64,000 bases of DNA from Nannocystis bainbridge (GTDB taxonomy: Bacteria; Myxococcota_A; Polyangia; Nannocystales; Nannocystaceae). The stretch is taken from contig NZ_JAQNDL010000003.1 of assembly GCF_028368995.1 (NCBI RefSeq), forward strand, positions 32,001-96,000. The letters are read 5' to 3'. Positions 3,339 to 7,000 of the stretch are shown here, piece after piece (position 1 is the stretch's first letter; each line of letters starts with the position of its first letter). Below the pieces are notes generated by a model. That model had not been told where the DNA came from. It made no database searches and saw only the letters and a program-made list of their open reading frames with translations. The translations under genes and the position numbers were made by a program.

Positions 3339-4001
3339 TCAGGCCGCCATCGCCGCCGTGCGCACGTGCTCCGGCGAGATCCCGAAGTGTTCCCGCACCT
3401 GCTCGATCGGCCAGGTCAGCATCGCCGCCCAGTCGGCCCCGAACAGCGGCCGCGTCGTCTGGCCCAGGCGCCAGCCGCGGGTGATCGCCTCCATGCGCCG
3501 GTCGCCGTCCTCGTACTGGAACAGCATCCCGTTGAGCAGCCCCGCCGACAGCAGCAGGTGCCCGAGCGGCGACTGCAGCTGGGCGATGTAGAACGCCTGC
3601 AGCCCCAGCTCGCCCGCCACGTCGGTGTCGAAGCCGAGCACCGTGTGCCACAGATCGTGGCTGCGCTCGAGGTGCAGCTTCATCAGCGCCGCGTCGCCGA
3701 CCGTGTCGGCCGCGCTGTGATAGACCCCGTTCGGGTCGAGCTTGCGCGCGTCGAGGAAGCGGGCGAACTCGCGGCCCAGGCTGCCCTCCGGCAGCGTTCG
3801 CAGCGCCTCGAGCTTCAGCTGCAGCGGCGCCAGCGGGCGCTCCAGGTAGGTCTTCACTTCGGGGCGGGCCAGCATGCGCCGCAGCCCCGGTGAGTCGTCG
3901 AACGCGTCGGCGAGGGCGAACACCAGGTCGAGGCGATCGGTGTCACGGACGAGGCGGACGTAGGTGCTGGCGAAGCGGAACAGGCCGACGATCTTGCGCA
4001 T
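3339..4001 (-). CDS. Coq4-family protein
   Basis: LPEGSLGREF and HDLWHTVLGFDTDVAGELGLQAF (HDxxH...E metal motif). Start moved to ATG 4001, which has GGAG 8 nt upstream. Confidence 0.88.
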   Translation of the reverse strand: MRKIVGLFRFASTYVRLVRDTDRLDLVFALADAFDDSPGLRRMLARPEVKTYLERPLAPLQLKLEALRTLPEGSLGREFARFLDARKLDPNGVYHSAADTVGDAALMKLHLERSHDLWHTVLGFDTDVAGELGLQAFYIAQLQSPLGHLLLSAGLLNGMLFQYEDGDRRMEAITRGWRLGQTTRPLFGADWAAMLTWPIEQVREHFGISPEHVRTAAMAA

Positions 4002-4033
4002 GCGAATCACTCCCTGCGGGCTTGCGGAGAAGA

Positions 4034-4047
4034 TGAGTCTTTGCTCA
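4034..4047. promoter_or_regulatory. Possible TetR operator (TGAG-N6-CTCA)
   Basis: Short palindrome in the 70-bp divergent gap between the Coq4-like gene and tetR. Short enough to be chance. Confidence 0.3.
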
Positions 4048-4071
4048 GATCCTCGCCACTCGCTTTTCCGC

Positions 4072-4710
4072 ATGGCCGCCCCCGCCCGCAAAAAGCCCGT
4101 CAAACGGCGCCGCAGCCCGATTCAGAGCCGAGGTCAGGTCACCGTCGACGCCATCGTCGAGGCGGCCGCTCAGATCTTGGCCAAGAAAGGTCCGGCGGCC
4201 GCGACCACCAACGCCGTCGCCGCGCGCGCCGGCGTCAGCATCGGCACCCTCTACCAGTACTTCGCCGACCGCGAGGCCCTGCTGCGCGAGATCGGTCGCC
4301 GTCACGTCGCCGAGATGCAGGCCGTGCTCGCCGGCGCCCTCACCGGCATGGAGGGCCTGGCGCTGCCGGCCGCCGTCGATCGCCTCGTCTCCGCGATCGT
4401 CGCCATGCACCGCGTCGCCCCGCGGCTGCACCAGGCGCTGCATCAATCGCTGGCCCGCGACCACCTCGACACCATCGACGCCTTCGAGGTCGCCGTCGAG
4501 GCGATGGTCGCCAGCGCCCTCGTCGGCCGCGGCGACGACCTCGACCTGCCCCACCCCGAGCTCACCGCCACCGTGCTGGTCCGCGGCCTCGGCGGCCTGA
4601 TCCGCACCACCCTCCGCCGCGAGCCCGAGCGCCTCGACGACCCCGCCCTCGCCCTCGCCATGCGCGCGATGATCCTCGGCACCCTCGGCGAGAGCCGCCG
4701 CAAGGGCTGA
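4072..4710 (+). CDS. TetR/AcrR family transcriptional regulator
   Basis: PIQSRGQVTVDAIVEAAAQIL...TTNAVAARAGVSIGTLYQYFADREAL HTH. Divergent from the Coq4-like gene. Confidence 0.93.
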   Translation: MAAPARKKPVKRRRSPIQSRGQVTVDAIVEAAAQILAKKGPAAATTNAVAARAGVSIGTLYQYFADREALLREIGRRHVAEMQAVLAGALTGMEGLALPAAVDRLVSAIVAMHRVAPRLHQALHQSLARDHLDTIDAFEVAVEAMVASALVGRGDDLDLPHPELTATVLVRGLGGLIRTTLRREPERLDDPALALAMRAMILGTLGESRRKG

Positions 4711-4849: not shown

Positions 4850-4943
4850 CATCATGTCGAATAGAACATGTCTTAAAAAGCATGTTCATTAAGACATGTC
4901 CATTAGAGCATTCCCGTTCGAGCATGCTCGTTCGGCCATCCTC
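4850..4943. repeat. 14-bp-period RRRCATGYYY array (array A)
   Basis: Cores at 4853, 4867, 4881, 4895, 4909 (CATT), 4923 and 4937 (CATC), plus an in-phase CATG at 4993. Lies between convergent genes. Confidence 0.88.
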
Positions 4944-5010
4944 GCCCGACACGGCACCCAGCCCCACGATCGGCGCTGGGCTCGGCTTCGGACATGCCCT
5001 TTCAATCAGA

Positions 5011-6495
5011 TCATTCGCTCGCCCGGCGCAGCACGAACAGCCTCGCCGCCGGCGCCGCGGTCGGGCCTGGCAGCGTGCTCGCGGCCTCACGCTCGAGCGT
5101 GAACGCCGGCGCGAACGGCCCCGCGATCGTCTCCTTCGCGTACGGCGTCACCCCGGCGGCCGGTTCGGCCAGCGTCTTCACGATCAGCGCCCCGCCGGGG
5201 GCGACCAGCCGGGCCATCGCCGCCGCATGGCGCTCGGCCTCCGCCGGCGCCAGCAGGTGCAGGCACGCGCGATCGATCGCCGCGTCGAACCGGCCCTGCA
5301 GGCGCGTCGCCGTGATGTCGTCGCTCAGCCAGATCGCCCGGCTCGTCGGCGCACGGGCGCGGGCCTGCGCGAGCGCGGCCGCCGAGATGTCGGTGGCGAC
5401 CACCGTGTGACCGCGGCTCGCCAGCGCCACCGCCAGCGCGCCCAGGCCCGTCCCGACCTCGAGCACGGACAAGCCCGTCGCGCCCTCGCGCTCGACCGCC
5501 GCCAGCAGGTCCGCGTCGGCCTCGTCGTGCTGCCACGGCAGCTCGGCCGGCGCGTGCGTGCGGTACAGCCGGTCCCAGCCCTCGGCCCCGCGCGGCGCCT
5601 GGGCCAGCCCCGCGCTCGCGCGCTCGCGCACGATCGCCTCGAGCAGCTGCACCACCACCTCGGGCGGCGGCGCCCCGCCCAGCATCGGCGTGCGCATCGC
5701 CGGCGGATCGGCGACCTCCAGCGCGCGCGCCGGGTGGGCCACGTGCAGCCCGTCCGCGATCAGCTGCGCCAGGTTGCGCTGCACCGCCGGCTCCGCGTAC
5801 ATCGCGGGGTTCATCGACGGCACCACCAGCACCGGCGCGCGCGTCGCCAGGGCGATCGCCGCCACCGCCGACGCGTGGTCCCCCGTCGCCAGCCGCGCGA
5901 TCGTCGTCGCCGACGCCGGGCACACCAGCACCGCGTCGGCCCACTGCGCCAGCTCGATGTGCGGCACCCGATGCACCTGGCTCTCGGGCCAGATCGCCGT
6001 CACCACCGGCGCGTGCGTCAACGCCTCGAGCGCCTCGACCCGCACGAACCGCAGCGCGCTCTCCGTGACCGCCGCGCGCACCTCGAAGCCGCGCGCCTGC
6101 AGCCGCTGGATCAGCGCCGGCGCGTGCATCGTCGCCGCCGCCCCCGTCAACCCCACCACCACCCGCGGCCCGGCCGTGCGCCCTGCCCGTGACGGCCCCG
6201 TCGTCACCGCCTCGAGCGCCCCCGTGCGCCGCAGCAGCGCCAGCAGCTCGCCGATCACCTCGGGCCGCTCGATCGGCGCCCCGGCCAGCGCCTCGACGTG
6301 GGCCAGCACCTCCGCCCCCGAGCGCGGCATCGCCAGGAACGCCAGCACCGCCGACGCCAGCGCCGCCGAGTCGCCGGTCAGCGCGTGGCCCTCGCCGTCC
6401 GGGCCCAGCGCCACCAGGCGCTCGCCGCATTCGTAGATCCGCACCACCGAGGCGCGGCGGAGGTTCCATTCGGTCCAGCGCTCGGGGTCCGTCAT
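5011..6495 (-). CDS. Three-domain protein: RRE/PqqD-like N-terminus + HFCD (LanD/EpiD-type) flavoprotein + class I SAM methyltransferase (TPMT/thiol-MT-like)
   Basis: HFCD motifs VVVGLTG, PHIELAQWAD, PASATT, PSMNPAMY. MTase motifs GWDRLY...LPW, VLEVGTGLG, TDISAAAL, FDAAIDRACLH. The first ~95 aa show a 3-strand + 3-helix pattern (inferred RRE). Confidence 0.85.
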   Translation of the reverse strand: MTDPERWTEWNLRRASVVRIYECGERLVALGPDGEGHALTGDSAALASAVLAFLAMPRSGAEVLAHVEALAGAPIERPEVIGELLALLRRTGALEAVTTGPSRAGRTAGPRVVVGLTGAAATMHAPALIQRLQARGFEVRAAVTESALRFVRVEALEALTHAPVVTAIWPESQVHRVPHIELAQWADAVLVCPASATTIARLATGDHASAVAAIALATRAPVLVVPSMNPAMYAEPAVQRNLAQLIADGLHVAHPARALEVADPPAMRTPMLGGAPPPEVVVQLLEAIVRERASAGLAQAPRGAEGWDRLYRTHAPAELPWQHDEADADLLAAVEREGATGLSVLEVGTGLGALAVALASRGHTVVATDISAAALAQARARAPTSRAIWLSDDITATRLQGRFDAAIDRACLHLLAPAEAERHAAAMARLVAPGGALIVKTLAEPAAGVTPYAKETIAGPFAPAFTLEREAASTLPGPTAAPAARLFVLRRASE

Positions 6496-6541
6496 CGTCG
6501 TCCTGAGTTCTCGCAGCCCGACCGGGCCGCCCGGGATGCTA

Positions 6542-7000
6542 TCATATGATCAGCAGCCGACACTCACCGTCGATCCACGCGCACAGCTGCTGCACCCCGC
6601 AGACCGCCTCGTCGGTGATCTGCGAGCAGTCGACCGTGCATTGCACGATCTCCGGCGGCCACACGCACAGCGGCGTCGCCTCGCACGTCGGCTGGTCCTC
6701 GATCTCGTCGCAGTCCGGGACGCCGTCGGTCTCGGCGTCGGTCGTCACCGACGTCGCCACTGTCGGATCGGTCGTCGAGGTCGTCGGCCCGCTGGCCGTC
6801 GTGGTCGTGCTCGTCGGGCCGTCGGTCGAAGTCCCGGGGGTCGTGTTCGTGGTCGATTCCGTCGGGTCGTCGGTCGCCCCGGAGGTCACGACCGTCGTCG
6901 ACGGCTTGTCGTCGCCGTCGTTGCAGGCCGGCGCCGCGGTCACCGAGGACACCGCGAGGATCGCCGGCACGCACAGTCTTCGTCCGATGTCGGGTCGCAC
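6542..7000 (-). CDS. Lipoprotein with Thr/Ser-rich linker and C-terminal duplicated Cys-rich motif
   Basis: Signal peptide ending APAC, low-complexity T/S/D linker, then two copies of C-x8-C-x5-CxW...C, ending ECRLLII. 46 bp upstream of the flavoprotein gene on the same strand. Confidence 0.8.
   Translation of the reverse strand: MRPDIGRRLCVPAILAVSSVTAAPACNDGDDKPSTTVVTSGATDDPTESTTNTTPGTSTDGPTSTTTTASGPTTSTTDPTVATSVTTDAETDGVPDCDEIEDQPTCEATPLCVWPPEIVQCTVDCSQITDEAVCGVQQLCAWIDGECRLLII

Follow-up and report, generated by a model that had tools for sequence, protein, structure and literature searches.

A winged-helix, flavoprotein and methyltransferase fusion in Nannocystis bainbridge with a lipoprotein-like partner: a candidate two-gene modification system

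Introduction

What is modified by an enzyme that joins, in one polypeptide, a peptide-binding type of winged helix, a flavoprotein of the cysteine decarboxylase type and a methyltransferase dependent on S-adenosylmethionine (SAM)? The question is raised by a gene in a 64,000-nucleotide stretch of the Nannocystis bainbridge genome (assembly GCF_028368995.1, contig NZ_JAQNDL010000003.1, positions 32,001 to 96,000 of the forward strand), which we call the window; its G+C content is about 72% and the genome is 11 Mb in size. The three parts resemble the recognition element (RRE) of peptides that are ribosomally synthesized and then post-translationally modified (RiPPs), the homo-oligomeric flavin-containing cysteine decarboxylases (HFCD) and the TPMT-like methyltransferases, respectively. 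A first-pass annotation, made from the DNA letters, had proposed that the enzyme binds a peptide ending in cysteine, decarboxylates it oxidatively to an enethiol and S-methylates the product.

Here we describe the enzyme together with a small gene, directly upstream, that the first-pass annotation had missed. On balance, and with modest confidence, we favour a leader-guided two-gene modification system in which the enzyme acts on the adjacent gene product, a pre-lipoprotein. The three families are known, but their fusion next to a lipoprotein-type precursor is apparently undescribed: a full-text literature search gave no description of an RRE-HFCD-methyltransferase protein, and the papers that it found describe no RRE-HFCD fusion of any kind.

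Results and Discussion

Domain architecture and the N-terminal domain

The enzyme gene is a stop-free open reading frame (ORF) with three domains (Table 1). Full-length homologues number at least 120, with identities of 49-86%, and the top one (86%) is annotated at NCBI as a Nannocystis sp. protein. The full-length AlphaFold2 monomer model has a confidence (pLDDT) of 87.9, and residues 99-105 form a disordered linker in it. All flavoprotein motifs listed by the first-pass annotation are in the sequence, i.e. PHIEL within VPHIELA (178-184), PASATT (193-198) and PSMNPAMY (226-233), and so are ARALEVADPP (257-266) and the two methyltransferase motifs, WDxxY...PW (WDRLY...LPW, 307-321) and FD...DRxxLH (FDAAIDRACLH, 403-413).

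AlphaFold2, run with a 32-member family alignment, folds the N-terminal 100 residues or so into four short strands followed by three helices (mean pLDDT 90.7). The Foldseek top match in the PDB is TbiB1 with its leader (E 1.9e-3, TM score 0.55), and nearly all of the best matches are RREs (ThcOx, TbtB, TruD, LynD, NisB, PbtF RRE and MadB, followed by TigE, PqqD, MibB, lasso B1, McbBCD, MccB and TglHI). In an independent VIA-align run against 48,161 chains, Z values of 8 or more were reached by six chains, all six of them RRE-bearing (MccB 9.5, PbtF RRE 9.1, MibB 8.8, TigE 8.7, BmdB/BmdC 8.6, TbiB1 8.5). The predicted structure thus supports an RRE fold for this domain, as had been proposed for its first 95 or so residues. 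The signal at the sequence level is faint. PqqD (PF05402) matches 2 out of 32 family members (best E 9.4e-4), the window's copy not being among them, and Pfam PqqD has no match anywhere in the genome; Lant_dehydr_N matches 4 out of 32 (best E 5.9e-4), and comparison of the N-domain sequence profile with solved structures gave nothing meaningful.

An N-domain profile finds only 138 representatives among 1.84 billion proteins, and their lengths cluster at about 470-520 residues (full fusions), 283-312 residues and 100-140 residues. Since the proteins of 283-301 residues carry only a Flavoprotein domain (6 out of 6 tested), the RRE-HFCD pair is, judging by domain content, the core of the family and the methyltransferase an add-on.

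The HFCD domain: catalytic residues, clamp and origin

The Flavoprotein family PF02441 matches residues 111-253 with 95 bits (cut-off 22.7). His179 (HIxLA motif) and Asn229 (PxMNxxM(W/Y) motif) are kept in all 35 fusion enzymes compared and align with their counterparts in nine CoaBC domains (MAFFT); Asn241, Glu260, Ala262, Pro265, Arg268 and the GxGxG motif are likewise invariant. A conspicuous difference from CoaBC is found in the substrate clamp, a hairpin formed here by residues 256-274, which contains no cysteine. The CoaBC N-domains read LACG in 9 out of 9 cases, the CoaBC of the same genome included, whereas the fusions read EVA(D/E/Q) in 6 out of 6, in a clamp that is five residues longer, and position 262 is alanine in 35 out of 35 enzymes. 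The earlier reading of ALEVA in place of LACG is therefore borne out, as is the lack of a CoaB domain: the best NCBIfam match, TIGR00521 (coaBC_dfp, 133.9 bits, under its cut-off of 219.7), covers only positions 4-154 of the 392 in the profile, i.e. the CoaC part. TIGR02113 (92.1 bits, cut-off 261.4) and the CypD equivalog NF033753 (35.3 bits, cut-off 215) are also under threshold. Because the catalytic residues are invariant and the clamp cysteine is replaced, the domain looks like an active cysteine oxidase or decarboxylase that is unable to reduce its enethiol product. It is not the housekeeping CoaC, as the genome has a separate CoaBC (G000:C1:94613-95797, 324.5 bits).

The nearest solved structures of this part are, in order, Mycobacterium smegmatis CoaBC, TvaF (6jls), SpaF (7cfu), the human and plant PPC decarboxylases, MrsD and EpiD; TvaF is 36% identical over 145 columns (rmsd 1.6). 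In a maximum likelihood tree of 74 HFCD domains, 23 of them from fusions, the fusion domains and one long-branch Streptomyces plasmid flavoprotein form a single clade (support 100/100) on a stem of 0.9 substitutions per column. The clade is nested in a 65-row group (99/99) of N-domains from bacterial CoaBC, in which the genome's own CoaBC stands elsewhere, and it is far from a Phaeobacter plasmid flavoprotein and from an EpiD-context protein. Bootstrap values were still not fully stable, and the placement of long branches is unsure. The description of the domain as LanD-like thus held for its residues and its missing cysteine and did not hold for its place on the tree, where it belongs to the CoaC-type group as a clade of its own, with the housekeeping CoaBC separate. 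The domain looks like a LanD condition that was reached from a CoaC-like ancestor.

The Streptomyces sequence is a stand-alone flavoprotein of the Streptomyces halstedii plasmid NZ_CP109045.1 (239556-240077). Two genes of the aminoglycoside-phosphotransferase family lie about 4 kb away, and they may mark a LanD-type RiPP locus.

The origin of the HFCD domain leaves room for an enzyme of small-molecule metabolism, i.e. a CoaC-derived decarboxylase acting on a cysteine conjugate (pantothenoylcysteine-like or another N-acyl-cysteine) whose thiol is then capped by the methyltransferase. In that case the winged helix would have another role and the neighbouring lipoprotein would merely be co-regulated. 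The position of the clade and the TIGR00521 match (134 bits, the best in NCBIfam) agree with this, HFCD flavoproteins without annotated lanthipeptide neighbours do exist (the Phaeobacter protein, which lies beside paaZ, is one), and a third of the loci (13 out of 39) have no partner gene. We nevertheless regard it as improbable, given that, within its best structural matches, the RRE fold of the N-domain is specific to peptide-binding RiPP proteins, that the leader motif of the partner is found essentially nowhere else in the genome, and that there are no conserved small-molecule pathway genes around the fusion (30 loci, up to 20 kb).

The methyltransferase domain

Class I methyltransferase models of Pfam match residues 305-450, Methyltransf_25 with 56 bits and TPMT (PF05724) with 34.1 bits, above its cut-off of 26. 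The GxGxG motif of SAM binding (Gly348, Gly350, Gly352) is kept in 35 out of 35 enzymes. Among solved structures, Rv0560c, YtkW, Ecm18 (4nec) and thiol or halide methyltransferases come closest (structural neighbours 4nec, 7bgg, 3lcc and 8ajp). These comparisons support a domain whose closest relatives are sulfur-, halide- or heteroatom-directed enzymes, in keeping with the thiol-directed activity first suggested, and S-methylation of an enethiol would be plausible chemistry.

Two weaker matches point elsewhere: NF041820, the model of the daptide methyltransferase (42.8 bits, cut-off 175), and 7wzg, an N-terminal methyltransferase of cypemycin (E 0.008). By analogy with CypD and CypM of the linaridins, and with the daptide enzyme, the domain might N- or O-methylate some other position of the peptide, independently of the HFCD domain, and RRE-HFCD proteins that do without a methyltransferase would agree with such independence. 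We consider this very unlikely, as enzymes of the TPMT, thiol, halide and Ecm18 types give the stronger matches and the partner begins with a signal peptide, which would be removed.

The partner gene and its conserved leader

The partner gene lies directly upstream of the enzyme gene on the same strand and has a GC3 of 0.92. The sequence AGGA stands in the spacer, 7 nt before the enzyme ATG, and a scan for terminator-like sites found none between the two genes; we infer that they are co-transcribed. The protein starts with a basic segment and a hydrophobic stretch, has a cysteine in lipobox position, and continues through a linker rich in Thr, Ser and Pro to a C-terminal domain with eight cysteines that ends in CRLLII. 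Its first 26 residues comprise a basic n-region, an LxVPxxLAV motif and the lipobox-position residue Cys26. When 21 partner N-termini are aligned, full conservation is limited to Pro12 and Cys26, with Leu15 close behind, and the consensus of the leader is R-R-L-x-[IV]-P-x-x-L-A-[VF]-[TS]. The arginine pair brought a Tat signal to mind, an assignment that we dropped because the arginines are not conserved and Pro12 and Leu15 are. Most partners pass a PROSITE-like lipobox rule.

A hidden Markov model (HMM) of the leader, built from 22 sequences, gives the window's partner 40.7 bits and the next-best of the genome's 120,587 six-frame ORFs 13.6 bits. Orthologues occupy the same position at five loci of the same genus (L144-L147 and L122). 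In more distant relatives small ORFs with a similar N-terminus stand beside the fusion, and their C-terminal parts are wholly different. Pfam and NCBIfam scans of seven partner proteins assigned no family, and a protein-atlas look-up of the window's partner led only to clusters of hypothetical proteins, with scores below 0.9.

Two other candidates were discarded. A C-terminal NF058595 ('lipo-invert') match on one partner (19.3 bits, cut-off 37) was judged non-specific: all matches to this model in five genomes are below its cut-off, and it matched 14 out of 14 control genomes. The term 'lipo-invert' itself is absent from the literature searched. A 1153-residue open frame lying over one partner at locus L158 proved, by codon-position GC, to be a shadow frame.

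Distribution and linkage

The fusion is patchily distributed. It occurs in 46 out of 401 sampled genomes of the class at E <=1e-50, and the counts per group are 22/71 (f1), 5/33 (f2), 10/67 (f8) and 2/71 (f69). Among 301 genomes of the phylum, whole-query matches were found in seven, all from the same class, besides one truncated copy; the other matches are CoaBC-type hits to the flavoprotein part, or hits to the methyltransferase part alone. At least four further fusion loci are among the contig-scan matches listed.

The neighbourhood survey that the first-pass annotation had called for took in 39 separate loci of the fusion, 8146 ORFs in 609 kb, with a threshold of 12 bits for the leader HMM. 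All 28 matches at or above this threshold sit within 600 nt of a fusion gene. A partner is present at 26 out of 39 loci, upstream on the same strand in 22 cases, downstream on the same strand in three and upstream on the opposite strand in one. In an independent set of metagenome contigs, collected with the methyltransferase motif, a partner was found at 9 out of 14 loci with enough upstream sequence. No other neighbour is conserved beyond the genus level within the 30 loci and up to 20 kb inspected.

Two loci deserve separate mention. L039 (G300:C12, 9547-10419) is the truncated fusion: it matches query residues 11-304, has a TGA within the match, possesses neither the methyltransferase part nor a nearby partner, and may therefore be decaying. 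At L037 (6900-10701) the fusion overlaps the end of an operon-like pair of 367- and 415-residue ORFs and there is no partner ORF; by eye, with no family scan, the pair resembles an NAD-dependent epimerase/dehydratase and an acyltransferase.

Which cysteine is the substrate?

The proposal of a substrate ending in cysteine finds no support in the partners: none out of 37 partner ORFs ends in this residue, nor does any short ORF near the window's enzyme gene, and the route from a C-terminal cysteine to an S-methyl-aminovinyl product is therefore left without a visible substrate. Partners fall into two kinds. In 28 out of 37 there are six or eight further cysteines, always an even number, the last of them standing 4-6 residues before the C-terminus. 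The other nine have no cysteine after the lipobox, only short acidic, proline-rich tails, several of which end in TPII or TPIV. Their enzymes (L158, L159, L162 and L138) keep His179, Asn229 and the full set of methyltransferase motifs. The only cysteine common to all partners is the one at the lipobox, Cys26. Since even counts fit disulfide-bonded exported domains, the lipobox cysteine is left as the odd one out, and if a cysteine of the partner is modified it would be, on these alignments, the most economical target and the only one that fits every case.

Two of these loci carry tandem partner genes before the fusion (L158, 8787-8993 and 9048-9230; L159, 10855-11262 and 11269-11463). The tails after the lipobox are 21-51 residues long, acidic, rich in proline and free of further cysteines, so that these products, if lipidated, would be small lipopeptides.

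The original idea can be kept in a modified form, in which a ribosomal peptide with a C-terminal cysteine is oxidatively decarboxylated to an aminoenethiol and S-methylated to a methylthio-vinyl amide, the peptide being encoded elsewhere or made by trimming the tail of 4-6 residues that follows the last cysteine of the cysteine-rich partners. Such a reaction would suit an HFCD domain that, as in LanD, keeps His179 and Asn229 and lacks the reducing cysteine. The similarity to TvaF and the near-terminal position of the last cysteine in 28 out of 37 partners also speak for it. We still think it unlikely, because none of the partners ends in cysteine, nine of them have no cysteine beyond the lipobox although their enzymes are intact, the even counts of all 28 cysteine-rich partners fit disulfide pairs with none to spare, and no conserved protease gene that could do the trimming was found within up to 20 kb of the fusion at the 30 loci.

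A leader-guided system and the points against it

In the two-gene system that we favour, the RRE domain would bind the conserved signal-peptide element of the precursor. The HFCD flavin domain would then oxidize a cysteine thiol to a thioaldehyde or enethiol, which, with the CoaC clamp cysteine missing, would not be reduced back, and the fused TPMT-like methyltransferase would cap the intermediate, most simply by S-methylation. All of these steps would take place in the cytoplasm, before Sec export. Leader binding, the modified residue, the reaction and the order of the steps are our inference from the domains and the partner. A predicted complex of the N-domain with the partner N-terminus reached scores of 0.26 and 0.29, short of the 0.32 mark, without controls, and speaks neither for nor against binding.

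A bolder version is that the signal peptide doubles as a RiPP leader, on which the RRE docks, and that the lipobox cysteine itself is what the flavin and SAM domains alter. We put this forward tentatively and think it rather doubtful. The product may be an S-methylated dehydrocysteine or a methylthio-heterocycle, formed by an internal, non-decarboxylative HFCD reaction, as the classical C-terminal decarboxylation would be impossible at Cys26 without an unseen cleavage. The outcome may be a new kind of hybrid between RiPP and lipoprotein, or else a switch steering the protein away from lipidation.

Several observations weigh against a modification of the adjacent partner. With regard to the chemistry, we know of no HFCD enzyme that acts on an internal cysteine, and in known members the counterpart of the invariant Asn229 binds the carboxylate of the substrate, an argument in favour of a free C-terminal cysteine. 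With regard to the partner, the lipobox in the window reads APAC and fails the PROSITE-like rule. When the leader HMM is built without the five sequences of this genus, it still ranks the window's partner first out of 120,587 ORFs, but the score is weak (14.8 bits, E 0.12, with 14.1 bits for the next ORF). With regard to linkage, 13 out of 39 genome loci have no partner (two of them with too little flanking sequence), and the same is true for 5 out of 14 assessable metagenome loci. A search for unlinked partners in five genomes found that two out of four genomes with partnerless loci hold a partner-like ORF elsewhere (34 bits); the fifth genome, G568, has such an unlinked ORF in addition to an adjacent partner at L148.

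Other features of the window

The locus is flanked by genes for a TetR regulator, a Coq4-like protein and two cytochromes P450 (Table 1). TetR, the Coq4-like gene and a P450 stand beside the fusion only at same-genus loci (L144-L147). The gap from the TetR gene to the fusion's 3' end contains an overlapping imperfect palindrome, which may be an operator or a transcript end. Some 19 kb separate the fusion gene from a hybrid non-ribosomal peptide synthetase-polyketide synthase (NRPS-PKS) gene, which is not conserved beside it in other genomes. A large signalling protein is also encoded in the window.

Table 1. Positions of the features within the 64,000-nucleotide window
Feature	Position	Strand	Basis or content
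Three-domain RRE-HFCD-methyltransferase enzyme gene	5011..6495	-	494 aa, stop codon 5011-5013; ORF translation
RRE-like winged-helix domain, residues 1-98	6202..6495	-	AlphaFold2, Foldseek, VIA-align
HFCD flavoprotein domain, residues 106-290	5626..6180	-	PF02441, structure matches, conservation, tree
TPMT-like class I SAM methyltransferase domain, residues 296-494	5014..5610	-	Pfam, solved neighbours, GxGxG
Spacer, partner stop to enzyme ATG, 46 nt	6496..6541	-	Sequence read
Partner, lipoprotein-like precursor, 152 aa	6542..7000	-	Translation, leader HMM
Partner leader/signal segment, residues 1-26	6923..7000	-	Alignment of 21 partner N-termini
Coq4-like gene	3339-4103	-	
TetR regulator gene	3964-4710	+	
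Imperfect palindrome	4900-4945		Overlapping arms 4906-4926 and 4923-4943, 76% complementary
Cytochrome P450 gene	7430-8638	+	
Cytochrome P450 gene	14322-15782	-	
Signalling protein gene, 1856 aa	15635-21205	+	Ser/Thr kinase, AAA_16/NACHT ATPase, GAF, histidine kinase (HisKA and HATPase_c)
Hybrid NRPS-PKS gene, 3403 aa	25602-35810	-	Two Condensation and two AMP-binding stretches, three carriers, one KS, one AT, C-terminal thioesterase

Among the 29 large ORFs of the window Pfam detects no lanthipeptide dehydratase, as the first-pass annotation had stated, and no cyclase or kinase genes lie near the fusion; none of the three is conserved across the 30 loci. The genome's only LanC-like match is about 124 kb beyond the end of the window. 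Lant_dehydr_N has no match in the genome, though the search control also matched nowhere.

Comparison with known systems

It is instructive to compare the enzyme with the LanD decarboxylases (TvaF 6jls, SpaF 7cfu, MrsD, EpiD and CypD). These share the HFCD fold, the histidine, the asparagine of the PxMNxxM motif and the absence of a reducing clamp cysteine. The differences are equally clear. The solved LanD chains are single-domain proteins of about 160-240 residues with neither an RRE nor a methyltransferase, while the enzyme described here has both. LanD substrates end in cysteine, which the partners never do (0 out of 37), and the lanthipeptide genes are missing from the neighbourhood. Moreover, on the tree the HFCD domain falls with CoaC-type sequences and is distant from the EpiD-context protein. 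By sequence, the closest relative is in fact CoaC of CoaBC (Dfp), with 35-47% identity to bacterial CoaBC N-domains and the same His and Asn motifs, from which the fusion differs by having no CoaB, an alanine (Ala262) instead of the clamp cysteine, a clamp longer by five residues and a patchy occurrence (46 out of 401 genomes).

The N-domain has the three-strand, three-helix winged-helix fold of the RREs in TbiB1, PbtF, MccB, NisB/MibB, TruD/LynD and ThcOx (Z 7.3-9.5, TM 0.5-0.63), although the presumed recognition sequence lies here inside a signal peptide. The methyltransferase shares the class I fold and the WDxxY...PW and FD...DRxxLH motifs with TPMT-like, thiol, halide and Ecm18-type enzymes; here, however, it is fused to an HFCD domain, and its scores are modest (34 bits).

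The most suggestive parallel is provided by the RiPP-lipoprotein hybrids, or 'DAG-RiPPs', that MNIO enzymes produce (Chen et al., PMC12636315 / PMC13056109). As far as the accessible text of these two papers goes, there too a precursor with a lipoprotein-type signal and a lipobox cysteine is encoded beside a cysteine-modifying enzyme. That enzyme is an MNIO, as opposed to the flavin HFCD and SAM methyltransferase domains found here, and the portions available mention neither decarboxylases nor flavoproteins. According to the same portions (PMC12636315, PMC13056109), a conserved motif at the C-terminus serves for recognition there, and leader-independent pathways are what the authors expect, whereas in our case conservation lies in the signal peptide itself and the enzyme carries an RRE. 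Should the partner prove to be the substrate, the locus would add a flavin/SAM route to these newly recognized hybrids, and it may extend HFCD chemistry beyond C-terminal cysteines. In this comparison, the architecture of the enzyme and its partner together point to an undescribed system of peptide or protein modification.

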